From positions 21,484 through 85,483 of the forward strand of contig SBGQ01000167.1 in the NCBI GenBank assembly GCA_006226965.1: 64,000 nucleotides of DNA. Direction: 5' to 3'. The notes beneath the pieces were generated by a model. That model was not told where the DNA came from, did not search any database, and saw nothing but the letters and a program-made list of their open reading frames with translations. Position numbers and translations under genes: made by a program. This DNA is from a bacterium (lineage in GTDB: Bacteria; Bacteroidota; Rhodothermia; Balneolales; M1805). Positions 315 to 43,417 of this stretch are shown one piece after another; positions within the stretch are counted from its first letter, which is position 1, and every line of letters begins with the position of its first letter.

Positions 315-1370
315 TTAACTCTGACTCATAATCTGAAAATAGACATCAATCCCATTTTCTAATTGCTCAATTTCGATGGATTCGTTTGCTGTATGCGATT
401 GTTCACTGTGTCCGGGACCTAATTTAATTGTCGGTATTTCACCTAAAAAAGCCCAATCTGAACAGGTTGGAGAACCGAAGAAATCTTTTGCCGTAACAGT
501 GTGACATAATTTGGCAATATTGCTATTGGCCTGAGTTGAAACAGCTTTAAAACGGTCGCTTCGAACACGAATTTCAACTTCAGGTAATAGCGTTGTGAGT
601 TGATTTAAGATATTTGTGCTACTTACATCAGGAATGGTTCGAATATCAACAATAATGGTAATCTCTTCCGGTGCCATATTGTTTGCTGTGCCGCCGGTAA
701 TTCGAGTTGGTGTGATCTTCGTTTTCCCGAGCCAAGGATTTTCAGTTTCGATTTCAAATAATTCCAATTTCTTTAAAACATCAGGAAGTTTAAAAAGAAG
801 ATTGTCGGTTTTGGAAATTCTGGCAGCATGGCCTGATTTGCCCTTCATCACCAATTCAAGAAGCAAAATTCCTTTTTGCGCTAAACAAGGTTGAAGGCTG
901 GTTGGCTCACCTACAATTGCTGATTCAACAGAATCAAAATAACCTTGTGATTTTAATAATTGAACACCGTTATAGTTTCCATAGGCTTCTTCACAAGCTG
1001 TAAAGGCAAATAATAGCCTATGTTGGGGTTTTATTTTTTGTTCTGAAATCTTTTTTAAGGCTTGCACCATGGCTGTTAAAGAACCTTTTGCATCGGTACT
1101 TCCGCGCCCAAAAACTTTACCTTCACTAACAAAGGGCTCGAATGCCGGGTACTCATGGTTGGGTGAAGAAGGTACAACATCCAAGTGCGTATTAAACAGA
1201 ATGGCTGACTTGCCTTCGCCGTACGATGCAAGCAGATTATCATCTATTCGTTGCACCGATACGTTTGGAATTGATTTAAGCTCAAGCTCTAACCAATCGG
1301 CGATTTCTTTTTCTTTTGTGCTTAAACTTTCAAATGAAATAAGTTTTTTCAGAAAATCTATAGCCGTCAT
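315..1370 (-). CDS. argE: M20-family deacylase (acetylornithine / N-acyl-citrulline deacylase, ArgE-like)
   Basis: 351 aa with M20 metal-site motifs HLDVVP, GRGSTDAKG and ACEEA. Its start overlaps the argB stop by 1 nt (TAATG). Arg operon context. Confidence 0.8.
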   Translation of the reverse strand: MTAIDFLKKLISFESLSTKEKEIADWLELELKSIPNVSVQRIDDNLLASYGEGKSAILFNTHLDVVPSSPNHEYPAFEPFVSEGKVFGRGSTDAKGSLTAMVQALKKISEQKIKPQHRLLFAFTACEEAYGNYNGVQLLKSQGYFDSVESAIVGEPTSLQPCLAQKGILLLELVMKGKSGHAARISKTDNLLFKLPDVLKKLELFEIETENPWLGKTKITPTRITGGTANNMAPEEITIIVDIRTIPDVSSTNILNQLTTLLPEVEIRVRSDRFKAVSTQANSNIAKLCHTVTAKDFFGSPTCSDWAFLGEIPTIKLGPGHSEQSHTANESIEIEQLENGIDVYFQIMSQS

Positions 1371-2143
1371 TACGCTTTAATTTCAGTGAATGTATGGTTG
1401 ATGATACCGTTTAAGGTTCCGATTTGAACTATTATACCTGCTTTTGCTAAATCCATGGCTTGTTCCAATTTCACAATCATTCCGTCTGTAATCCAACTGT
1501 TTTTAATCCCGGATTCAATTTCTTTGAGGGAAAGTGAAGAGACAAAAGTGCCCGATTCGTTTTTCACGCCGGCTAATTCAGAAATCATGACAACTATTTT
1601 TGCATCAACAGCAAGTGCAACGGCAGATGTAATGGTGTCTGCGTTTACGTTTAAAAAACCGTCAACTGCTGAATACCCTAAGCAAGAAAAAACAGGAATC
1701 GTAAATTCAGCAAGCTTTTTTAGTTTATCGGAATCGATAGTTGATAAATCGCCAACAAATCCGAAATCTATCATTTCGCCATCAAAAGACTTTGGCGGAC
1801 GTTTAGTGAAGGTTAAAAGTTGTGCGTCGCCCGTTGTCACACCAAGAGCACTAATGTTATTTGCCAAGAGTAGACCCGTAATTCTTCTGTTTAGATTACC
1901 ATGAACGAGTTCAAGCATGATGTCTCGAATTTCAGCTGAGGTAATTCTTCTGCCTTTAATTTTTTGAACGGGGATGTTTCTTTCAGAACAGGCTAAATCG
2001 ACTTGTTTTCCGGCGCCGTGAACAATGATTGGGGTAAACCCGTTTTTGATGTATTGATTCACAAAAACGGGTAATTGTGACATGAGTTCGTCTTGCTCAA
2101 GAACACTGCCGCTTAGTTTAATTACAACGAATGATTGTTGCAT
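1370..2143 (-). CDS. argB: acetylglutamate kinase
   Basis: Amino-acid kinase family (VVIKLSGSVL, IIVHGAGKQV). I chose the ATG at 2143, which overlaps the argF' stop by 1 nt. The track start at 2158 is a TTG 5 codons upstream. Confidence 0.9.
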   Translation of the reverse strand: MQQSFVVIKLSGSVLEQDELMSQLPVFVNQYIKNGFTPIIVHGAGKQVDLACSERNIPVQKIKGRRITSAEIRDIMLELVHGNLNRRITGLLLANNISALGVTTGDAQLLTFTKRPPKSFDGEMIDFGFVGDLSTIDSDKLKKLAEFTIPVFSCLGYSAVDGFLNVNADTITSAVALAVDAKIVVMISELAGVKNESGTFVSSLSLKEIESGIKNSWITDGMIVKLEQAMDLAKAGIIVQIGTLNGIINHTFTEIKA

Positions 2144-3144
2144 TAAATTAAATCCCAAATGTGCATGAGTAAAGCTTTCTGAGCATGCATTCTGTTTTCA
2201 GCTTGTTGATAAATTACTGAACGAGAATGATTTAGAGCTTCATCGCTAGCAACAACGTTTCTTCTTACGGGAAGACAGTGCATTAATCGGGCATCCGGTG
2301 AAGATTCTAAATGGTGCTGATGTACAGTCCAGTCCATGTGCTGATGGCGTAATTCCTGATCTTTGTGCGGATTATCAGGATGATAGATAGAATGCCAAGA
2401 TTTCACATAAATCACATGAGCATCTTCGGCAATTTCATCTTTATAGGAGAATGAGCCGTCAAACTCTTGTGCTAAGTGACGAAAATAACGGTCGTAGTTT
2501 TGTGAAAAACGGAATTCTTCAGGACAGACAACTTCTACTTTTTGTCCGCTTCTGAGCGCCATATCAACAAAAGATTGAGGAACTGCTCTTGGAAGTGGTT
2601 TTGGATGAGAAGCCCAGCGTAAAACTACTTTACGTTTTTCAACATTGGGGTGAACTTCTTCCCAAGTTAATCTGTCTGCCAAACTTTGGCAAGGATGTGA
2701 AACTGAGCTTTCAAGGTTAATGAGCGGTACTTTTGAAAATTTTAAAGCTTCATTAAAAAACACATCCTGAAAAGCTTGGTCTTGTTGGTTTCCAAACCCA
2801 AATCTTCGAATACCGATAGCATCAGCGTAAGAGCCTAGTACTTGCATAACATCCATGATATGCTCTTGCGCTAAGCCATCCATCAATGCTCCGGGAAGAT
2901 GTTCGATATGCCATGTATTTACACCCGATTGCATTACAGAAACATTGGCACCTAATTGCCATGCTGCGGTTTGAAATGAAACTTGTGTTCTGAGTGATGG
3001 ATCAAAAAATAAAAGAGCTAAGGTTTTTCCTTTTGCCGCAGAAAGTTGTTTGTTCTCGGCGGCTTTTAATTCTTTCGCCGTATCGATGATTTGTGTGAGC
3101 TTTTCGCTTGAAATGTCCGACAGATTAATAAAATGTTTCATCAT
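2143..3144 (-). CDS. argF: N-acetyl- or N-succinyl-ornithine carbamoyltransferase (ArgF' type)
   Basis: 333 aa with transcarbamylase motifs DPSLRTQVSF, SHPCQ and HCLPVRRN. The last is the variant I associate with acyl-ornithine rather than ornithine transcarbamylases. Confidence 0.8.
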   Translation of the reverse strand: MMKHFINLSDISSEKLTQIIDTAKELKAAENKQLSAAKGKTLALLFFDPSLRTQVSFQTAAWQLGANVSVMQSGVNTWHIEHLPGALMDGLAQEHIMDVMQVLGSYADAIGIRRFGFGNQQDQAFQDVFFNEALKFSKVPLINLESSVSHPCQSLADRLTWEEVHPNVEKRKVVLRWASHPKPLPRAVPQSFVDMALRSGQKVEVVCPEEFRFSQNYDRYFRHLAQEFDGSFSYKDEIAEDAHVIYVKSWHSIYHPDNPHKDQELRHQHMDWTVHQHHLESSPDARLMHCLPVRRNVVASDEALNHSRSVIYQQAENRMHAQKALLMHIWDLI

Positions 3145-3181
3145 TTAACTATCTAAAATGAATAAGCGCCAAGTATTGGCA

Positions 3182-4342
3182 TTAATGTGATTTATTGGAT
3201 AGCAGAATTTCAAGTGTATCGAAAAACTGCTTAAAAATTTCAATTGGAGTATTTATTGGCGGCATGAGTCGCATAATTGATGCAACATTTGATGAGCCGG
3301 TAATAAATCCTTTTTCTAACAATTGTGCACGAATATCCTTGGTATCGAACGGTAGTTCAAGTCCGATTAAACATCCTTTACCATGAATTTTGATATTCAG
3401 TGCTTCACTTCTTTGGGATGCATAAGCAAATAACTCTGTTGCATGAGTCATCAAATCACCCGAAACAATTTCTTCTAATGTGGCTTTATGTGCAGCCATT
3501 GCAACCATCCCGCCGCCAAAAGTTGTTCCCAAGTCTCCTTGTTTGATATGTGTCGCAATGGATTCAGGGGTTATAAGAGCTCCAATAGGAATGCCGGATG
3601 CCAAACTTTTTGCCATAGTAATAACATCAGGATAAACACCGACTCCTTCAGAATACGAAAATGTCCCTGTTCTGCCTACGCCCGTTTGGACTTCATCGAA
3701 AATGAGTAAAGCATTATTGGAATCGCATAAATCACGTAAGAAAATCAGACTTTCTTGTGGAATAACATACATGCCATTCATGGATTGAATGGGTTCTAAT
3801 ATCACAGCTCCAATCGGAAACTCAGCGAACAAAGCGGAAATGGATTCGAAATCGTTAGCATCGGCAAAGTGAACAGTCGGGCGTTCTGATGTTAACGTTT
3901 TGTGCATCTTTGCAGAATCAGTTGCTGAGATACTTGCTAATGTTCTTCCGTGAAAACTTCCTTTAATCGCAATGATGTGATGTTTTCCGGTAACTTGCCA
4001 AGCAATTTTAATCGCATTTTCATTGGCTTCGGTTCCCGAGTTGCAATAAAAAACTTTTGATTTTGGAAAAGGTGAGAGCGAAGAGAGTAAACTAGCCGCT
4101 TCTTCTCTAATAGTTGAATGAACAACATTCGAGTAAAAAATTAATTTTGATGCTTGGTCGGATATTGCTTTTGTAACAGATTCAGGTGAATGTCCTAAAA
4201 TGGTAACGCAATGTCCGCCATATAAATCGATGTATTCTTTACCGGATTCATCATAAAGAAAAACGCCTTTTCCGTGGTCGGCACGAATCGGAAAACGAGC
4301 GTATGTTTCAATTTCGGGGTTAAAAGTAGATTCGGTTGACAT
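3182..4342 (-). CDS. argD: acetylornithine aminotransferase (class III PLP aminotransferase)
   Basis: 386 aa with CNSGTEANE, FDEVQTGVGRTG and a PLP-lysine context TMAKSLASG. Operon context. Confidence 0.85.
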   Translation of the reverse strand: MSTESTFNPEIETYARFPIRADHGKGVFLYDESGKEYIDLYGGHCVTILGHSPESVTKAISDQASKLIFYSNVVHSTIREEAASLLSSLSPFPKSKVFYCNSGTEANENAIKIAWQVTGKHHIIAIKGSFHGRTLASISATDSAKMHKTLTSERPTVHFADANDFESISALFAEFPIGAVILEPIQSMNGMYVIPQESLIFLRDLCDSNNALLIFDEVQTGVGRTGTFSYSEGVGVYPDVITMAKSLASGIPIGALITPESIATHIKQGDLGTTFGGGMVAMAAHKATLEEIVSGDLMTHATELFAYASQRSEALNIKIHGKGCLIGLELPFDTKDIRAQLLEKGFITGSSNVASIMRLMPPINTPIEIFKQFFDTLEILLSNKSH

Positions 4343-4371
4343 GTATTTCAGAGGTTCGTCTGTCAGTTTAT

Positions 4372-5340
4372 TTAAAATATATATCCCGGAAACATCAATC
4401 CGGTGGTCTCATCGAGCCCTAAAGCCAGATTCATGTTTTGGATGGCCTGACCTGATGCGCCTTTTACTAAGTTATCGATAGCAACTCCAATTACAGTTTG
4501 AGCGCCTTTTTGAACGACACCAATTTCTGTGAAATTACTTCCGGTTACTTGTTTTAGTTCAGGTAAAGCACCTTCAGTTAATCGAACAAATGGTTTGTTG
4601 TAATACGTTTCTTCAAACCATGAAAATAAATTGGGTTTTAAAGCAGTGAAACTGATAGTAGCCCAGATTCCACGAGTGAATGGACCGGATACAGGCGTAA
4701 ATTGTAAACTCAAATCAGTATTAAATAGCTTTTTAGAGCTGGTTTTTATCTCTTTTTCATGCTGATGCTCGAGTACTTTATAGGCTTTCACATTTGAGTA
4801 TCGTTCAGAAAATTGAACACCCGGTTTTAAACCAGCACCTGATCCTGTTGATCCTGTTAGCGCTGTAATGTGAAATAAGGCATTTACTCCATTTTCAAGC
4901 ACAGGGAAAAGTGCCAGTTGAATGGCTGTGGCGAAACAACCCGGATTGGCAATCTTTTTTGCTTTTTTGATGTCGGCTGTAAACCACTCTGCCAAACCAT
5001 AAGTGAAGCCGTCTTTCCAGCGGAAATCGGTACTCAGATCAATGAGTAAACCTTTGAATCCGTTTTTTTCAAGTTGATTTACAATGGGTTCGGCAGCACC
5101 GTGCGCAACGGCAAGAAATAAAACATCTAAGTCAGTTTCAAAGATTGCAGAAACAGGTAAGATTTTATTTTCAAATCGTTCGGTTAAAAGCCCGGGGTAC
5201 AATTCATCGATATATTTTCCGGCAGATTCATTTCCAAATAAAAAAACCTGTCCGCAATTTGGGTGAACATGCAATAATCGGATTAATTCAACACCTGTAT
5301 AACCGCTTGCGCCAACTATGCCAATCTTTAAAGAACTCAT
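4372..5340 (-). CDS. argC: N-acetyl-gamma-glutamyl-phosphate reductase
   Basis: 322 aa with GASGYTG NAD(P) motif and catalytic-Cys motif NPGCFAT. Its ATG overlaps the stop of the upstream gene (ATGA). Confidence 0.9.
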   Translation of the reverse strand: MSSLKIGIVGASGYTGVELIRLLHVHPNCGQVFLFGNESAGKYIDELYPGLLTERFENKILPVSAIFETDLDVLFLAVAHGAAEPIVNQLEKNGFKGLLIDLSTDFRWKDGFTYGLAEWFTADIKKAKKIANPGCFATAIQLALFPVLENGVNALFHITALTGSTGSGAGLKPGVQFSERYSNVKAYKVLEHQHEKEIKTSSKKLFNTDLSLQFTPVSGPFTRGIWATISFTALKPNLFSWFEETYYNKPFVRLTEGALPELKQVTGSNFTEIGVVQKGAQTVIGVAIDNLVKGASGQAIQNMNLALGLDETTGLMFPGYIF

Positions 5341-6374
5341 GCTGTTTTTGCTCCCAATTCATCGAGAACGAGTTTTCCAAGTGTTTCGGGTTCAGTCATT
5401 GCATTGGCAGCTTTAATGCCGATTGTATTTTGGATGTAACGAGTACCGACAATATTGTCAGTAACCGGACCTGTAATGATATGAACAGGCAAATGAAATC
5501 TGTTTTTGAATAAATGGTCTAAAGCCCAACAACCGGTAAGGTCTTGTGCAGCAGAAACATTCACCGTAATAAACTGATTTAAATTTTTATCAGCCAAAAG
5601 TGTATCTACACCATAACCACCGATTACGCCATCTCCGAATTCAACTACTATAACATCAGGTTTTAATTGATTAAGGTGTTTGATAATCCCTTTTGCCATC
5701 GGAAGGATATTGGCTCCCGTAGTTGAAATCATACCAGCTTCAGTAAACGTAGCGATGTATTTTGCACCGTTTTTCTTCATGGATTTGGTATCTCTCAATA
5801 AAGATGCACCGGTTAATTTAGCAGCGCCTACGGTATAACCAGCTTCAACCAAAGCTTTTGTTATTACTGATGCGGCATATGTTTTACCAACGTTCATACA
5901 AGTTCCGGAAACGGCAACAATCGGTACGGACTCTTCTAAATACTCAACCCATTCAATTCCATAATCACTGATTGTTGCATGTTTGTAAATATCTTCATGC
6001 TCATTCTTCACTAAAACGGCACCTAAGATTTCTACATTACAAGCAGGTCCATAAGATGGATAATCAGACTGACTTTGGCCGATAATTCCGCCCATATTGA
6101 GGATTTGCAAAGTATCACCTTTAGTGATTTTACGCGGAACTTTACCGGAATAGCCTCTAAGCGCCTGGCGCTCACCCAATGTTCCGATAATAACCTGACC
6201 AGCTTTGTATGTATGAAACTCAGCTTGAGTGTCTTCTAATTGGTTATAAACTTCTTTATTGTCGAGGATTTTACAAGCCACTAAATAACCATCTCTGGCT
6301 ATAATATTTGGGCTTATAGCTATCTGTGCGCCTAAATTGACGTTGATAGTTGAAGATGTAATCAAATCTGGCAT
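5337..6374 (-). CDS. uncharacterised arg-operon protein with a BioD/CobQ/DUF1611-like P-loop domain
   Basis: The track ORF is 5337..6521, but its first 49 codons overlap the argG 3' end in another frame and are low-complexity. I therefore prefer the Met at 6374 (345 aa, 52 nt after the argG stop). Motif VSGTCMNVGKTYAASVITKALVEAGYTV has the GTxxxVGKT spacing of dethiobiotin-synthase/CobQ/DUF1611-type NTPases. The N-terminal ~160 aa is not recognisable to me. Confidence 0.6.
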   Translation of the reverse strand: MPDLITSSTINVNLGAQIAISPNIIARDGYLVACKILDNKEVYNQLEDTQAEFHTYKAGQVIIGTLGERQALRGYSGKVPRKITKGDTLQILNMGGIIGQSQSDYPSYGPACNVEILGAVLVKNEHEDIYKHATISDYGIEWVEYLEESVPIVAVSGTCMNVGKTYAASVITKALVEAGYTVGAAKLTGASLLRDTKSMKKNGAKYIATFTEAGMISTTGANILPMAKGIIKHLNQLKPDVIVVEFGDGVIGGYGVDTLLADKNLNQFITVNVSAAQDLTGCWALDHLFKNRFHLPVHIITGPVTDNIVGTRYIQNTIGIKAANAMTEPETLGKLVLDELGAKTA

Positions 6375-6426
6375 AATGAAATGGAACTCTTCATTGTTTT
6401 GGGATGATGCCGGTGCGCTAAAACCG

Positions 6427-7626
6427 CTAGTTTTGTGATTGGTATTGTTGTGTGGAAATACCAATGATCTTGCTGAAGGACGCGGCTTCGTTTCCGCTCC
6501 AGAGTTGTGATTGTTCGCCATACTGATAGGCTCCTCTGTTTAGGGTTGAGTTGGTTGATTGAATAGAAGTTGGGTACATATTGCCTCTGTATGCATAAAT
6601 GGTAACTGTTCCATGCACACGTTCTTGAGTTTTATCAAGAAAAGCCTGAATTGCTTTAACCGCTGGGTCAAAATAGAGAGCTTCATGCCATAAAATGCCT
6701 AGTTGGTCAGCTAATTGATCTTTTAATAATCGTTCATGTTTGCTAAGAATTACTTTTTCTAATTCGCGATGTGCAGCATATAAAATCGCAGCAACAGGAG
6801 CTTCAAACCCGATTCTTCCTTTAAAACCAAGAATGGTATCGCCTGTATGAACCCCTCTGCCAATACCGTGTTTTTCGCCGAAGGTTTTAACAGCATGAAG
6901 TAAGTCAAACGGATTAGAATATTCATTGCCGTTAATCGAAATAGGTAAACCGTTCACAAAAGAAATCGAAAGGGTTTCCGGTTCGTCAGTCATTTCATGT
7001 GGTGCAGGAAGATGCGGATAAGCTTCAAACGGCAGAGTATTATCGCCTTTTACAGTATTACCGCCGCCTACTGTAACACCCCAAATGCCTTCGTTTATCG
7101 AATAAACAGAAGATTTCGAGAAGTTTAAGCCAAAGTCTTTTTCAAGAGTATTTGCCATAAATTCACGTTGAAAACTGTGTTCTCTGATTGGCGTTAATAT
7201 TGATAATTGCGGAGCAAGTGCACGTATAGCAGCGTCGAAACGGATTTGGTCGTTTCCGGCGCCGGTTGAACCGTGTGCAACAGCATCACAACCAAGTTTT
7301 GCAGCTAATTCAGCAACTTTTTTGGCTTGAATAAAACGTTCAGAACCGACTGACAAGGGGTAGGTTCTGTCTCTTAAAACATTTCCTTTGATTAAATAAG
7401 CAAGAACATCGCTAAATAATTCTTGAGTAGCATCAATAATATGGCACTCACTGGCACCTAAAAGAATAGCACGTTCTTTTAATACTTCAATTTGATCGGC
7501 TTTCAAACCGGTACAATCTACGTTTACGGCAATAACTTCAGCACCGTAAGTTTTTTTGATGAAAGGGATACAAAAACTAGTATCTAATCCACCACTATAG
7601 GCAATAGCAACTTTTTTGGGGTTCAT
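6427..7626 (-). CDS. argG: argininosuccinate synthase
   Basis: 399 aa with AYSGGLDTS ATP-PPase motif and HGSTGAGNDQIRF. First enzyme gene of the operon. Confidence 0.95.
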   Translation of the reverse strand: MNPKKVAIAYSGGLDTSFCIPFIKKTYGAEVIAVNVDCTGLKADQIEVLKERAILLGASECHIIDATQELFSDVLAYLIKGNVLRDRTYPLSVGSERFIQAKKVAELAAKLGCDAVAHGSTGAGNDQIRFDAAIRALAPQLSILTPIREHSFQREFMANTLEKDFGLNFSKSSVYSINEGIWGVTVGGGNTVKGDNTLPFEAYPHLPAPHEMTDEPETLSISFVNGLPISINGNEYSNPFDLLHAVKTFGEKHGIGRGVHTGDTILGFKGRIGFEAPVAAILYAAHRELEKVILSKHERLLKDQLADQLGILWHEALYFDPAVKAIQAFLDKTQERVHGTVTIYAYRGNMYPTSIQSTNSTLNRGAYQYGEQSQLWSGNEAASFSKIIGISTQQYQSQN

Positions 7627-7654
7627 GGTTTTCTTAAAATTTCAAATTAGTGCC

Positions 7655-7693
7655 AAAAAAAAAGGCAGGACTCATTGAAGAATCCTGCCTTTT
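7655..7693 (-). terminator. intrinsic terminator inside the arg operon leader (attenuator terminator)
   Basis: On the minus-strand RNA the stem is GGCAGGA (7689-7683) paired with UCCUGCC (7670-7664), with a 12-nt loop. Nine U follow (7663-7655). The structure ends 28 nt before the argG ATG. Confidence 0.65.
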
Positions 7694-7717
7694 CAGGTTG
7701 AATGAATTAACCTTAAC

Positions 7718-7801
7718 TCATCTACATGATTCTTCTAATGCAGTTGCCCAACGGCGACGGCGCACTAAAACTGAACCAGCTATAAGAGTGTTGTTTTTCA
7801 T
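7718..7801 (-). CDS. arginine-rich leader peptide, 27 aa: MKNNTLIAGSVLVRRRRWATALEESCR
   Basis: Below the track size cutoff. ATG at 7801-7799, TGA at 7720-7718. Codons 14-17 are CGC CGT CGC CGT (plus-strand 7751-7762). It sits between a candidate promoter and the terminator upstream of argG. Confidence 0.6.
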   Translation of the reverse strand: MKNNTLIAGSVLVRRRRWATALEESCR

Positions 7802-7808
7802 TATACCA

Positions 7809-7837
7809 AGTATTTGATTTTTTGAAATAAAATGCAA
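7809..7837 (-). promoter_or_regulatory. candidate promoter of the arg leader, overlapped by an ARG-box-like palindrome
   Basis: Minus strand reads TTGCAT (7837-7832), a 17-nt spacer, then AATACT (7814-7809). On the plus strand, TGAAATAAAATGCA (7823-7836) matches 11 of 14 positions of the E. coli ARG-box consensus TGAATAAAAATTCA as I remember it. Both matches are weak. Confidence 0.25.
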
Positions 7838-7856
7838 GTGTCTGTTAAATAAAATT

Positions 7857-7886
7857 TTGATGATTAAACAATTAAGCTAATATTAT
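7857..7886 (+). promoter_or_regulatory. candidate sigma70-like promoter for the solute-binding protein gene
   Basis: TTGATG (7857-7862), an 18-nt spacer, then TATTAT (7881-7886), 48 nt before the ATG at 7934. Confidence 0.35.
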
Positions 7887-7933
7887 GTCGTATTTTGTAA
7901 CTCGTTTATTTAGCTAATCTTAGATAGTTCATT

Positions 7934-8797
7934 ATGTTTAAAAAATTACAAGTGTTCATATTACTGTTTCTAATTGGTGTTACACAGGCGTATTCACAAA
8001 AAACGTACTCTGGTGATACTTGGAAAGATGTTAAAGAAAAGGGAGAGGGTAATATTGTATTAACCTATGTTGAAACACCGGCTTTTGTGTTCAAAGATGC
8101 AAATGGGAAATTACAAGGGATTTGCGTTGATATTGTAAACAGTTTTATCAGTTATGTTCAGAATAACTACAAAGTGAAGTTAAATGTGAAGTATGAAGGC
8201 GATGGTTCAAACTTCAAGAATTTTTATGAGTCAGTAAAAGGATCAAAAGGCGGCGTAATTGGTCTCGGGAATGTTACAATTAAAGAACAGCGCAGAAAAG
8301 AAGTTGCGTTTTCTCCGGCGTACATTAAAAGTATTGCACTATTAGTAACTCATTCAAGTGCACCCGATATTGCAGACCCGTCTGAAATGAGAACAAAATG
8401 GGCAGGATTTACGGCTTATGTTCCAAAGGGAACCACACATGAACAACGGATGATTTCTTTAAAAGAACGATATTTCCCGGAATTGAAAATTGAATATACA
8501 TCATCAAGTTTTGAGTCATTTGATAAAATGTTAGATGATAAAAAGGCAATTTGTTTTCAGGATATTGCTTTGTATTGGGATTACAAACAAAAAAGCAAAC
8601 CGGTAAAAACAGTTAATTACGAAAAAGATAGCGGTGAAGAATTAGCACTGATTATGCCGCTTGGCAGTGACTGGGAACCCTTGTTTGATGAATTTTTTAG
8701 TGTTGGTGCTGGTTTTAAATCCAGCACGATTTACAGAAGTAGTTTAATGAGGCATTTGGGTAAAGAAGTTGTCCAAATGCTTAAAATGGCTCAATAA
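7934..8797 (+). CDS. periplasmic solute-binding protein, family 3 (amino-acid-ABC-type SBP fold), orphan
   Basis: 287 aa with a signal peptide (LFLIGVTQAYSQ) and SBP_bac_3-like layout. No permease or ATPase gene nearby. Confidence 0.65.
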   Translation: MFKKLQVFILLFLIGVTQAYSQKTYSGDTWKDVKEKGEGNIVLTYVETPAFVFKDANGKLQGICVDIVNSFISYVQNNYKVKLNVKYEGDGSNFKNFYESVKGSKGGVIGLGNVTIKEQRRKEVAFSPAYIKSIALLVTHSSAPDIADPSEMRTKWAGFTAYVPKGTTHEQRMISLKERYFPELKIEYTSSSFESFDKMLDDKKAICFQDIALYWDYKQKSKPVKTVNYEKDSGEELALIMPLGSDWEPLFDEFFSVGAGFKSSTIYRSSLMRHLGKEVVQMLKMAQ

Positions 8798-9807
8798 GTT
8801 ATTAAGCCTTGATTTAATTTAGAAGTCAAGGCTTTTTTTTGTGGTTCGTCTATGAAAATGTGATTAATAGTTGATTCATTAACACACTTAAATTCTTCAA
8901 TTCCCCATCCGAAAACCTGCTGCATCTTGTAATATTCTAGCGATAAATCAATGCCGGTAATTGTTCTGGTGTCGGTGTTTATACCAACTGAAACTCCTTC
9001 AGAAAAAAAAGTGTTTATTGGGTGCGATGAATAGGTCGGGAAGACATCAATCTGAACATTCGTAGATGGGCAGACTTCTAAATGAATTCGATTATTAATT
9101 AATTTCTTTATTAAATCAGGGTTCTCAATTGATCTTACGCCGTGGCCGATTCGTTGAGCTTTTAAAACATCAAGGGTTTCAAGTACACTTTGTGCACCAA
9201 GTGCTTCGCCGGCATGTGCGGTAATTGGAATGTCTTTTTTGAAAGCTTGTTGAAACGCATCTTGGTGTTCTTGCAAATCAAACCCCGCTTCATCACCCGC
9301 AATATCAAATCCAACGACGCCCTTACCCATAAAATGTTCTACAAGTTCAAGTACCTCAAAACTCTCTTTTTTTGAAAAATGGCGAAGTGTACATAAGAGA
9401 AAGTTGGTTTGTATATCCCATTTTTTATTCCATTTTTGAGCTTCATCAGTAAGAATCTGTACAACTTCAAATGGTGTTAAACCTTTTTGTTGGTGTAAGT
9501 GAGGGGCAAAACGAATTTCAGCATAGAAAATAGAATCGTGTTTTAACTGTTTGAGTAAATCTTTAATGGAATGCCTTAGCTGTTGTTCAGTTTGCAAATA
9601 ATTAATTTGCGGAGTGGCATATGTAAGGAACTGAGCTAGTGTTTTAAACTTTGCTGGTCCGACAAAGCGCTCTTTAAATGCAGATTCAGTTAAATCAGGA
9701 ATGTAGGTTGATAGGAAATCAAAACTCAATGAACAGTCCAAATGAACATGAAGTTCTGTTTTTGGTAATAAGCGTATTTGTTCAATTGTTAACTTCTGAT
9801 TTTCCAT
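8791..9807 (-). CDS. add: adenosine deaminase
   Basis: Motifs ELHVHLD, HAGE, RIGHGV, CPSTN and NTDT. I chose the ATG at 9807 (MENQKL...). The track start at 9825 is a TTG. The 3' end overlaps the convergent SBP gene by 7 nt. Confidence 0.85.
   Translation of the reverse strand: MENQKLTIEQIRLLPKTELHVHLDCSLSFDFLSTYIPDLTESAFKERFVGPAKFKTLAQFLTYATPQINYLQTEQQLRHSIKDLLKQLKHDSIFYAEIRFAPHLHQQKGLTPFEVVQILTDEAQKWNKKWDIQTNFLLCTLRHFSKKESFEVLELVEHFMGKGVVGFDIAGDEAGFDLQEHQDAFQQAFKKDIPITAHAGEALGAQSVLETLDVLKAQRIGHGVRSIENPDLIKKLINNRIHLEVCPSTNVQIDVFPTYSSHPINTFFSEGVSVGINTDTRTITGIDLSLEYYKMQQVFGWGIEEFKCVNESTINHIFIDEPQKKALTSKLNQGLITY
8805..8840 (+). terminator. intrinsic terminator of the SBP gene, lying inside the 3' coding end of the convergent add gene
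   Basis: AGCCTTGA (8805-8812) pairs with TCAAGGCT (8826-8833), followed by a T-run to 8840. Confidence 0.6.
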
Positions 9808-9887
9808 AAAAAAGTATCCTCCCAAAAGGCAAAGGTAGTCTTTTTTAAGCTTTTATCATTCAAATGCTTTCGTGTAGGTTATATCAA

Positions 9888-20687: not shown

Positions 20688-20782
20688 CTCGGATGGTAGG
20701 GGTGCTGTTGCATTGGGCAATGGCTGAGATAATACCCTTTAACCTGATCCAGATAATGCTGGCGTAGGAAACCACCGGAAAT
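20688..20782 (+). promoter_or_regulatory. TPP (thiamine pyrophosphate) riboswitch
   Basis: Contains the THI-box core GGGGTGC...GCTGAGATAATACCCTTTAACCTGATCCAGATAATGCTGGCGTAGGAA (20699-20770). P1-like TGGT/ACCA arms flank it. It lies 60 nt upstream of the TonB receptor ATG. Confidence 0.85.
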
Positions 20783-20842
20783 GCTTTTATAAATAAACCG
20801 GCCAATCCTCAAAAGCACCAACTGAAACATATCAATTGGTCA

Positions 20843-43343: not shown

Positions 43344-43417
<74 letters not shown>

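Follow-up and report, generated by a model that had tools for sequence, protein, structure and literature searches.

Textbooks assign the control of arginine biosynthesis to the ArgR repressor and list classical leader-peptide attenuators for Trp, His, Leu, Ile/Val, Thr and Phe. The proteobacterial attenuators trpL, hisL, leuL, thrL, pheL and ilvL (Rfam Trp_leader, His_leader) place a run of codons for their own amino acid in a short ORF, follow it with an intrinsic terminator a short way ahead of the operon's first gene for biosynthesis, alternate among 1:2, 2:3 and 3:4 pairings, and position the stop codon so that a terminating ribosome masks segment 2. In fungi, the arginine attenuator peptide (AAP; the arg-2/CPA1 uORF) is an upstream ORF that makes an arginine-biosynthesis gene arginine-responsive; this eukaryotic system is translational, depends on a conserved nascent peptide that senses free arginine in the ribosome, and uses neither an Arg-codon run nor a terminator. 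The argG leader that we analyse here, in a window comprising the whole 64-kb stretch of DNA, shows the listed features of the proteobacterial attenuators as predicted elements, the 1:2 pairing with no more than moderate support. It differs from them in its predicted sensing of arginine, its lack of Rfam similarity, the absence of a Shine-Dalgarno sequence, a probably leaderless or nearly leaderless mRNA, and its FCB-group hosts.

Attenuators reported or predicted in Flavobacteria/Bacteroidetes include the Bacteroidetes trp leader RNA and, in Flavobacterium psychrophilum, an Ile-rich leader of ilvE and a His-rich leader of hisG (PMC9723704 and its supplement). These belong to the same broad lineage and likewise consist of a codon-run ORF and then a terminator before a biosynthetic operon, but they sense Trp, Ile or His, with no arginine example listed (PMC9723704). 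Consecutive Arg codons do report arginine in the Salmonella speF leader orf34/SpeFL, where the position of the ribosome also selects the mRNA structure; there, however, the target is ornithine decarboxylase, control runs through Rho-dependent termination, RBS sequestration and RNase G decay with no intrinsic terminator, and the peptide is conserved (DUF2618; PMC6386406), unlike that of the argG leader. Similarly, the rbfL leader peptide of Staphylococcus aureus senses arginine limitation through pausing at Arg codons, but it does so with two rare AGA/AGG codons, at which the stalled ribosome occludes the rbf RBS and so acts on translation, represses under starvation, and targets a biofilm regulator (PMC13009471). 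In having a short ORF at the 5' end, with no Shine-Dalgarno sequence and rich in the related amino acid, the argG leader further resembles the leaderless attenuators of Deinococcus deserti (PMC4007540) and the mycobacterial polycysteine sORFs (bioRxiv 10.1101/834739); in this comparison, the leaderless start of the argG leader is a prediction from promoter spacing. Table S9 for Deinococcus deserti excepted, no arginine case of a leader-peptide terminator attenuator was found in Rfam 15 or in full-text literature searches, and such an attenuator is apparently new to the literature. Rfam cmscan, run at permissive and at gathering thresholds, matched no known leader family or any other family in the region, at this site in a scan of the whole window or in 16 related loci; the best scores within 7000-8500 were driven by the terminator and fell well short of threshold (22 bits against 43 for rncO, 22 against 58.7 for L20_leader).

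We consider it likely, with a probability of roughly 0.85, that this element attenuates transcription in the classical, ribosome-mediated manner through a leader peptide, responding specifically to arginine and controlling argG-X-argC-argD-argF'-argB-argE. The features on which this reading draws are as follows.

7832..7837, minus strand: TTGCAT, a -35/-33-like element 36 nt before the leader ATG, with conserved spacing; putative promoter role
7806..7812, minus strand: TACTTGG, a T-rich motif of the ...TTG type and putative Bacteroidetes-type -7 box, ending 4-5 nt before the ATG
7718..7801, minus strand: leader peptide ORF of 27 codons plus stop, MKNNTLIAGSVLVRRRRWATALEESCR, from the sequence and ORF list, with homologous Arg-run ORFs before argG elsewhere
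7767..7781, minus strand: segment 1, the anti-antiterminator, GCUGGUUCAG..., leader nt 21-35, predicted to pair with segment 2 when no ribosome is present
7751..7762, minus strand: four regulatory Arg codons, CGC CGT CGC CGT, leader codons 14-17, nt 40-51
7723..7736, minus strand: segment 2, AGAAGAAUCAUGUA, which would form the 5' strand of the antiterminator; leader nt 66-79, codons 22-27, with 2 nt between it and the stop codon
7680..7689, minus strand: segment 3, the terminator 5' arm and also an antiterminator strand, GGCAGGAUUC, from folding and covariation
7664..7673, minus strand: segment 4, the terminator 3' arm, GAGUCCUGCC, from folding and helix covariation
7655..7663, minus strand: U9 tract closing the intrinsic terminator, 28 nt short of the argG ATG
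6427..7626, minus strand: argG, argininosuccinate synthase, the first structural gene, from the ORF list and Pfam Arginosuc_synth on homologues
5340-6374, minus strand: gene X, to which we assign no function
4372-5340, minus strand: argC
3182-4342, minus strand: acetylornithine-type aminotransferase (argD)
2143-3144, minus strand: N-acetylornithine carbamoyltransferase (argF')
1370-2158, minus strand: argB
315-1370, minus strand: ArgE/DapE-type deacylase (argE)

From argG to the deacylase gene, seven tightly spaced genes lie on one strand (the rest of the operon spanning 315..6374), an arrangement that suggests a single arginine operon. The neighbouring gene at 7934-8797 is divergent and no same-strand gene ends upstream, in agreement with an earlier note on this DNA, which had remarked that no gene ends here. 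That note's 27-codon ORF, running from 7801 to 7718 and containing CGC CGT CGC CGT, likewise proved correct in coordinates and codons on re-checking: the ORF starts with ATG at 7801-7799, stops with TGA at 7720-7718 on the minus strand, and lies within a TTG-extended ORF (7718-7837) in the program's ORF list. Arginine, the amino acid encoded by the codon run of this short ORF, is also the end product of the operon downstream. The CGC and CGT codons of the run are common in the host genome by codon usage, and Arg makes up 4.0% of codons in the long ORFs of the window. Four consecutive CGN codons occur once in the 64-kb window against an expectation of 0.19, and at least once in 16 of 100 shuffles; taken alone, this rarity is weak evidence of anything beyond chance. 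The combination of the Arg run with a terminator, a position before argG and conservation in other genomes lies, by contrast, far beyond it. A scan of the whole window for other leaders, with Arg runs or runs of another amino acid and a terminator, returned no second copy. No Shine-Dalgarno sequence precedes the leader ORF, as would be expected in this group, and its absence would be irrelevant if the leader mRNA is leaderless.

Comparison with other genomes supplies the decisive evidence. Approximately 18 distinct loci have, before argG, a short ATG ORF containing 2-4 consecutive Arg codons and then a terminator; they derive from uncultured relatives, Balneolales, a Longibacter-type Rhodothermales contig and metagenome contigs, and the identity of their ArgG ranges from 84% down to ~45%. 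Their Arg runs before argG, and the further carriers, are these.

L001: RRRR
L002: RRR
L084: RRR..RR
L085-88: RR
L089: RR
L092: RRR
L004, L005, L006, L040, L093 (the Balneolales isolate ANBcel1), L094/95, L096 and L097: further carriers
L099, a Longibacter-type contig: Arg-run leader ORF and terminator before argG

Cultured carriers include Balneolales strain ANBcel1 (GCA_029688905.1), Longibacter salinarum and Natronogracilivirga saccharolytica. Just two Arg codons are found in L085, L089, L026 and L035, and one close relative (L091, 72% for ArgG) has neither leader nor terminator. In the other loci, the run falls at codons 10-15 and its codons are swapped synonymously among CGC, CGT, CGA, CGG and AGG, while the remainder of the peptide is poorly conserved beyond the close clade; synonymous Arg codons within an unconserved peptide point to selection on the codons rather than on an RNA motif or a folded peptide. 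The leader unit always lies on the argG strand, usually 19-42 nt before the gene. To gauge specificity, we scanned 927 kb of related loci on both strands for an ATG ORF with at least three Arg codons ending no more than 90 nt before a terminator, and 10 of the 12 matches were located directly before argG on its strand. The scan for ORF plus terminator also distinguishes carriers from non-carriers, and among 73 distant ArgG loci, terminators are found before argG almost only where an Arg-run ORF is present. Arg-rich short ORFs at three loci (L059, L062, L083) were set aside as false positives lying out of frame within argR, as were several further ones in high-GC loci. Across the argG upstream regions, conservation extends to the Arg run, to the terminator and to the complementarity that would make the antiterminator, with synonymous and compensatory variation, and both orthologous and distant loci lend support to the core proposal of the earlier note, that of an Arg leader with mutually exclusive terminator and antiterminator before argG.

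The same comparison bears on whether the small ORF and its terminator are instead a self-contained gene, encoding a small protein or a small RNA, while argG is transcribed from a separate promoter placed within the 28-nt gap or farther up. Within the close clade, the peptide's N-terminal half (..L[IV]AGS..V..) is indeed conserved, and the peptide has a mildly hydrophobic look, like that of a small membrane peptide; furthermore, both leader peptides and attenuator RNAs, once released, can act in trans in some other bacteria (PMC6614838, PMC7298713). Beyond the close clade, however, what is kept is the Arg run and the RNA pairings and not the peptide, the unit is never uncoupled from argG, and a gap of 28 nt is too short for a promoter. 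The codons for the conserved AGS (GCUGGUUC) fall on RNA segment 1, and an independent gene would have no use for a leader 3' end that, as described below, is complementary to the terminator of the same unit. We therefore regard such a gene as highly improbable.

The hairpin between the leader ORF and the first gene of the operon has the form of an intrinsic terminator. Specifically, a GC-rich stem of 10 bp (-17.9 kcal/mol) closes the loop UUCAAU (7679-7674) and is followed by U9, the whole occupying 7689-7655. The earlier note's hairpin followed by nine U to 7655 holds, but its 7-bp stem does not, as folding gives 10 bp; the two spacings it had put at about 28 nt and 28 nt, from the stop codon to the hairpin start and from the end of the U tract to the argG ATG at 7626, both measure 28 nt. 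Across 11 loci, the terminator helix is 96.4% paired, compared with 39-57% in slid controls, and four of its 10 pairs have changed on both sides in a compensatory manner. The U tract measures 6-9 in the AT-rich loci. A consensus terminator scan does not list this terminator, though folding and covariation clearly support one.

Facing this terminator is a candidate antiterminator formed with the 3' end of the leader ORF. The complementarity between GAAGAAUCAUG (7735-7725) and CAGGAUUCUUC (7687-7677) is exactly as the earlier note gave it. Its conclusion that the two structures exclude one another also stands; the overlap it had given, five of seven arm nucleotides, becomes eight of 10 once the stem is taken at its full 10 bp, CAGGAUUCUUC comprising those eight nucleotides of the terminator 5' arm together with three of the loop. 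In the window, the antiterminator consists of 8+3 bp at -13.6 kcal/mol (RNAduplex), compared with -6.6 +/- 2.0 for dinucleotide shuffles (p=0.0035), and the folding of the 184-nt leader as a whole stands at z=-4.85 against shuffles. L001 shows a compensatory change from G-C to A-U. The pairs themselves vary by locus (GAAGAAUC:GAUUCUUC, AAAGAAUC:GAUUCUUU, GGGAAAG:CUUUCCC, GAAGAU:AUCUUC, GUGAAGAUU:GAUCUUCGC). As the register differs among loci in a MAFFT alignment, column-wise covariation gives 55% paired against 38-67% for slid controls, and we used per-locus shuffles and an own-versus-other permutation for this reason. By the former, 13 of 15 loci pair the leader 3' end with the terminator 5' arm more stably than their dinucleotide shuffles do, the exceptions being the GC-rich L040 and L096. 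By the latter, leader-terminator pairings within their own locus sum to -170.8 kcal/mol against -112.1 +/- 10.7 when permuted, and none of 20,000 permutations was as good (p<5e-5).

Folding with a ribosome held at defined positions suggests how these structures could alternate. When no ribosome is present, the MFE structure of the leader pairs 12 of the 14 nt of segment 2 with nt 22-35; against shuffles, this 1:2 pairing reaches p=0.16 in the window and 0.03 in L001, L002 and L085, a marginal gain that lends it no more than moderate support. When a ribosome is placed on the Arg codons of the window leader, the co-transcriptional MFE structure is the antiterminator (-17.7 kcal/mol), and when it is at the stop codon or lacking, the constrained folds form the terminator. 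The antiterminator is obtained only when the nascent transcript is folded without the 3' arm: for the full transcript at equilibrium, even with the ribosome stalled, the terminator fold is at -30.0 and the antiterminator at -17.7, 12 kcal/mol apart, and the terminator likewise prevails at equilibrium in most AT-rich loci. Read-through would thus have to be kinetic. The same is true of the E. coli trp attenuator, in which the terminator fold is favoured at equilibrium and read-through is kinetic.

The spacing of these parts is consistent across loci. The last Arg codon is separated from segment 2 by 14 nt in the window and by 14-36 nt in 15 of 15 loci, and segment 2 ends no more than 14 nt from the stop codon, on either side, in 14 of the 15. 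This geometry fits classical ribosome-mediated attenuation, in which a stall at Arg would free segment 2 and a ribosome at the stop codon would mask it; the ribosome placements proposed in the earlier note agree with both the constrained nascent folds and the 15-locus spacing. On these sequence elements, and on their conservation, covariation and geometry, the following course of events can be proposed. Transcription would begin ~36 nt past the conserved TTGCAT, at or within a few nucleotides of the leader AUG, and a ribosome would load on the 27-codon leader while RNA polymerase makes the next ~100 nt. With ample Arg-tRNA(Arg), the ribosome would pass the four Arg codons, reach the UGA and mask segment 2 (nt 66-79), leaving segments 3 and 4 to pair as the GGCAGGAUUC/GAGUCCUGCC hairpin with its U9 and transcription to stop 28 nt before argG. 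When charged tRNA(Arg) is scarce, the ribosome would stall at codons 14-17 and cover segment 1 (nt 21-35) while segment 2 is left exposed, given a gap of at least 14 nt; segment 2 would then take segment 3 as it emerges, the terminator would be blocked and polymerase would enter argG. If the leader were not translated, segments 1 and 2 would pair and the terminator would form, so that the default state would be off.

Perhaps, alternatively, the nascent Arg-rich peptide itself is the sensor, through a stall at or near the stop codon induced by free arginine or another small molecule, or through antibiotic sensing at an Arg-X-Arg motif. Such a reading has the right regulatory sign, since a ribosome held at the stop codon would also mask segment 2 and favour termination, and basic +X+ sequences are known macrolide/ketolide arrest motifs (PMC8298421); conserved Arg codons are also found in orf34/SpeFL (PMC6386406). 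Arrest peptides, however, need a conserved sequence, whereas the length, the flanks and the number of Arg residues (2-7) vary here, as does the spacing between the Arg run and the stop codon, and the downstream genes serve arginine synthesis, neither resistance nor catabolism. In the peptide, the Arg run is all that the loci have in common, and we accordingly did not place the leader in the arrest-peptide class (AAP, TnaC, SpeFL). A peptide sensor is, in our estimation, very hard to credit beside an attenuator that reads Arg codons.

Upstream of the leader, the TTGCAT element has its T-T-G at least 90% conserved at a constant distance from the ATG in 10 of 11 aligned loci, these 10 being the ones whose extract reaches the site. 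A TTG 4-5 nt before the ATG occurs in the window and in L001, L002, L084, L085, L089 and L097. In the window it forms part of TACTTGG, which we take to resemble, imperfectly, the Bacteroidetes -7 box TAnnTTTG. It is possible that TACTTGG acts as such a box, which would make the leader mRNA leaderless or nearly so; from the promoter spacing, we infer that it probably is.

ArgR is the usual regulator of arginine genes, and control exerted mainly by a DNA- or RNA-binding protein (ArgR at the proposed ARG box, or a TRAP/PyrR-like binder of the leader RNA), with the Arg codons incidental, has to be weighed at this same site. ArgR operators are pairs of ~18-bp imperfect palindromes with the core TGAAT-WWWW-ATTCA that overlap the promoter. 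The sequence TGCATTTTATTTCA (7823-7836) matches, at 12 of 14 positions, the 14-nt core of the E. coli ARG-box consensus, TGAATWWWWATTCA, and the earlier note had read it as an ARG-box-like palindrome affording dual control along with the attenuator. Its halves, however, are not complementary to each other, leaving one imperfect half-palindromic site and no palindrome; no second, tandem ARG box is present; the match drops to 10/14 in L001 and is gone in L002; and its TGCAT belongs to the conserved -35-like TTGCAT. As a lone, non-palindromic site that decays in relatives and overlaps a promoter element, 7823-7836 finds no support as an ArgR operator, and the proposal of dual control was rejected with it as unsupported. 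Furthermore, the 64-kb window, the portion of the genome covered here, encodes no ArgR signature motif, and no repeated RNA element to which a protein might bind was apparent. The gene argR does lie directly before argG in 27 of the 73 distant loci, but these argR-adjacent loci lack the leader and terminator and the leader loci lack an adjacent argR, the two being essentially never together at one argG locus. Control of this operon mainly by such a protein is very unlikely, and attenuation at the Arg leader remains the preferred reading.

If the attenuator reading is true, arginine would join the amino acids whose tRNA charging a leader peptide senses, and the argG locus would offer a clear case of regulator replacement, in which argG is adjoined by argR or by an Arg leader and essentially never by both. 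More tentatively, and doubtful when taken as a whole, the attenuator may be the main arginine sensor of a deep lineage (Balneolales/Rhodothermales together with this uncultured clade), having replaced ArgR beside argG; a leaderless mRNA may couple ribosome loading at the 5' end to polymerase; the element may travel with an argG-X module in which X is an undescribed arginine-pathway enzyme; and the released ~150-nt RNA or the Arg-rich peptide could act in trans. For annotation, the leader provides a signature, namely an ORF that starts with ATG and has its Arg run at about codon 14, and then GGCAGRAYY...RRUYCUGCC-U7-9, by which regulatory ORFs lacking annotation would be recognised in Balneolales, in Rhodothermales and in uncultured bacteria related to them.

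Upstream of argG, the minus strand of the window carries a leader whose predicted logic is that of classical ribosome-mediated attenuation, applied to arginine. Its elements are:

7801-7718, minus: leader ORF of 27 codons, ATG at 7801 and TGA at 7720-7718, encoding MKNNTLIAGSVLVRRRRWATALEESCR
7762-7751, minus: Arg run CGC CGT CGC CGT, leader codons 14-17
7689-7680, minus: terminator 5' arm GGCAGGAUUC, followed by the loop UUCAAU
7673-7664, minus: terminator 3' arm GAGUCCUGCC, followed by U9
7663-7655, minus: U9 tract, with the argG ATG (7626) 28 nt past its end

The ORF, its Arg codons and the spacings between stop, hairpin and argG that an earlier note had proposed were all borne out when the minus strand was read over 7400-8200. 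The hairpin, which begins 28 nt past the leader stop, and its U9 are present as that note described, save that the stem has 10 bp (-17.9 kcal/mol) rather than 7; the minus-strand gene map also upholds its remark that no gene ends upstream of the terminator. The leader ORF is nested within a longer TTG-start ORF in the ORF listing of the window, and the 184-nt leader folds with a z of -4.85 against shuffles. Four consecutive CGN codons occur at this one site in the window (0.19 expected) and at least once in 16 of 100 shuffles; taken alone, this rarity is weak evidence for function.

Comparison with related argG loci (handles L001-L099; relatives and metagenome contigs) carries more weight. The genome scan gave two close relatives, L001 and L002, both with an Arg leader and terminator, and further loci, among them the more distant L093-L097, were added via contigs of ArgG homologues.

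Leader peptides at related argG loci
L001: MKTTTLIAGSVLVRRRRWVTALKESCL
L002: MKHSNLVAGSTVFSRRRLFSEDEL
L084: MKKINTNTSSFLIRRRTCATLRRTLFSK
L085-88: MTHKSLVAGSSVFSRRLLLLEDAI
L089: ..VLFRRFINGEIL
L092: MKSLLTYPVTIALRRRPLVLNGWESYAMR
L093 (Balneolales isolate ANBcel1): MKLNMTYNLCNDSRRRRFRRRLERDLCKDCV
L094/95: MIQTINIIIRRRLRREISFEKIMSES
L096 (65% GC): ..PLRPRRRVRRP..
L097: MTNELLHINRIENPRRRRCEFDSPGKNMP
L099: MTTQTVHTTRARRRARRERRIRTRMDGIDALGTMA

Metagenome loci L004, L005, L006 and L040 also bear both elements, and L090 has the terminator, its extract ending short of the full leader. Across loci the Arg codons swap synonymously (CGC, CGT, CGA, CGG, AGG) within a run that keeps the frame of the ATG and, at most loci, begins at codon 14 or 15, while the peptide outside the run lacks conservation beyond the close clade. 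A control scan of both strands of 93 non-redundant loci (927 kb, 59 terminator-like sites) for ATG ORFs of 8-60 codons with at least three consecutive Arg codons, ending no more than 90 nt before a terminator, returned 12 matches, of which 10 directly precede argG and share its strand. Two AT-rich metagenome loci, L026 and L035 (33-34% GC, 2171-2503 in each), hold a weaker two-Arg leader, ..SRR(T/L)FGEGSIFM(S/A), with a conserved tail whose GGGG is able to pair with a CCCC(C) terminator arm; L026 has a tandem pair of terminators, and these leaders may form a separate sub-family of Arg attenuator. At L093 (2260-2500) the terminator lies 241 nt from argG, versus the usual ~30 nt, and the spacer contains two copies of a 20-nt direct repeat, GAATCGAAGATCACGAAGTG.

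In an 11-locus alignment, pairing in the terminator helix reaches 96.4%, with both-sided change in 4 of 10 pairs (slid controls, 39-57%), and GGCAGRAYY...RRUYCUGCC-U(n) is still recognisable where ArgG identity falls to ~53%. The competing helix, in which the leader ORF 3' end (segment 2) pairs with the terminator 5' arm plus loop, outdoes dinucleotide shuffles at 13 of the 15 loci; these are related, so a combined p-value across them is not to be taken at face value.

Antiterminator pairs
Window: GAAGAAUC:GAUUCUUC
L001: AAAGAAUC:GAUUCUUU, a G-C to A-U double change between close relatives
L092: GGGAAAG:CUUUCCC
L094: GAAGAU:AUCUUC
L004: GUGAAGAUU:GAUCUUCGC
L099: 12-bp helix

Counted column-wise on the MAFFT alignment, this helix does not stand out from slid controls (55% paired against 38-67%), the loci differing in register. 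In an alignment-free test, 11 dissimilar leaders fitted their own terminators with a summed energy of -170.8 kcal/mol, against -112.1 +/- 10.7 kcal/mol for those of other loci; none of 20,000 permutations was as good, and for 7 of the 11 the own 3' region ranked first as partner. Ribosome-free folds also pair segment 2 with leader nt 21-35 (segment 1), with only moderate statistical support.

The geometry suits such a switch. In all 15 loci, segment 2 follows the final Arg codon by 14-36 nt, so that a ribosome stalled on the run exposes segment 2 and masks segment 1. In 14 of 15, the end of segment 2 falls no more than 14 nt before or after the stop codon, so that a terminating ribosome masks it. 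When the nascent window RNA (nt 1-128) was folded with a ribosome placed at the Arg run, the antiterminator formed (-17.7 kcal/mol); with the ribosome at the stop codon or absent, the terminator formed. Under arginine scarcity, then, a ribosome held at the run would leave segment 2 free for the antiterminator and permit read-through to argG, and under plenty it would reach the stop, cover segment 2 and let the terminator form. The full-length leader favours the terminator fold over the antiterminator by 12 kcal/mol, so read-through must be kinetic, as it is at the E. coli trp attenuator. Since CGT (35%) and CGC (19%) are the commonest Arg codons of the window genes, the design is a codon run as in his and trp, not a rare-codon trap.

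TTGCAT, 36 nt 5' of the leader ATG, and a T-rich ...TTG, 4-5 nt 5' of it, are both conserved in position, and their spacing puts the putative transcription start at, or a few nt from, the AUG. We infer that the leader mRNA is leaderless or nearly so; every leader opens with ATG and lacks a Shine-Dalgarno sequence. Leaderless leader peptides of Deinococcus (PMC4007540) and mycobacteria (10.1101/834739) are among the nearest known cases. The ARG box suggested at 7823-7836 (TGCATTTTATTTCA) did not hold up: it overlaps TTGCAT, is not a true palindrome, stands without a partner box and matches less well in L001 and L002, and the site evidence does not support the proposed dual control by ArgR.

The kind of device is known. 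Its nearest cases include the classical trp, his, leu, thr, phe and ilv leaders and the Trp, Ile and His leaders of Flavobacteria (PMC9723704). Salmonella speF orf34 senses arginine via two Arg codons and takes effect by way of Rho, RBS masking and RNase G (PMC6386406), whereas the argG leader has an intrinsic terminator; S. aureus rbfL combines rare Arg codons with translational occlusion (PMC13009471), whereas the argG leader codons are common. Rfam 15, where the earlier note would have sought a family for the leader, gave no match at this site, whether the leader region or the whole window was scanned, and none for 16 related loci. Full-text literature searches yielded no Arg-codon leader with an intrinsic terminator before arginine biosynthesis genes, a Deinococcus set of 14 leader peptides lying outside that coverage; that list aside, the arginine version was not found described elsewhere.

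The leader precedes a same-strand cluster headed by argG:

6427-7626, minus: argG, first gene of the cluster
5340-6374, minus: gene X, 345 aa, without assigned family
4372-5340, minus: argC
3182-4342, minus: acetylornithine-type aminotransferase
2143-3144, minus: N-acetylornithine carbamoyltransferase (NF003384, 316 bits)
1370-2158, minus: argB
315-1370, minus: ArgE/DapE-type deacylase
7934-8797, plus: SBP_bac_3 gene (amino-acid-binding type), divergent from argG on its upstream side
8791-9825, minus: adenosine deaminase gene, convergent with the SBP_bac_3 gene

The last two neighbours also occur at L084, L085, L089 and L091. Rfam and ARAGORN over the full 64 kb found no RNA features beyond a TPP riboswitch (20688-20787, plus, 65.9 bits) and a tRNA-Gly(GCC) (43344-43417, plus).

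Against Pfam and NCBIfam, gene X reaches threshold for no family (a DUF1611 P-loop match is sub-threshold); it is 100% identical to the NCBI hypothetical protein EP331_14245 [bacterium], which places the window in an uncultured MAG. Its 448 homologues are mostly from Balneolales and Rhodothermales; it fills the argG-argC slot in L092-L099 (345-369 aa; L093:3737-4813, L097:3704-4777, L096:3893-4972, L099:3001-4110, the last equal to the Longibacter salinarum protein) and is absent from L084, L085 and L089. The longest X ORF (5337-6521, minus, 394 aa) overlaps the argG 3' end by 95 nt; gene callers and homologues begin at MPDLITSS (6374), so the extra N-terminal stretch is probably spurious. A confident AlphaFold2 model (pLDDT 92.7) has a beta-rich N-terminal domain and a SIMIBI-type P-loop domain, dethiobiotin synthetase-like. 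Neither argA nor argJ is recognisable in the operon, so our guess is that X is an arginine-pathway enzyme, a candidate for the missing step. With the small clade set aside, the best matches to the window ArgG and X come from Balneolales/Rhodothermales (50-64% identity), with which the argG-X-argC order and the leader are also shared, and the nearest MAGs (L001, L002) are labelled Chitinophagales; either these labels are loose or the operon and attenuator were transferred.

The attenuator appears open to loss or replacement inside the clade, as at L091 (72% ArgG identity, same gene neighbourhood), where the 218 nt upstream of argG (2700-2919) hold no Arg leader and no terminator. Among 73 more distant ArgG loci with at least 200 nt upstream of argG (L004-L083), 27 have argR as the gene next upstream of argG, and none of these 27 has a genuine leader with terminator; the Arg-leader loci in this set have no adjacent argR, and terminators upstream of argG are almost confined to loci with an Arg-run ORF. 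This either/or pattern of argR and Arg leader beside argG suggests that one regulator has replaced the other.
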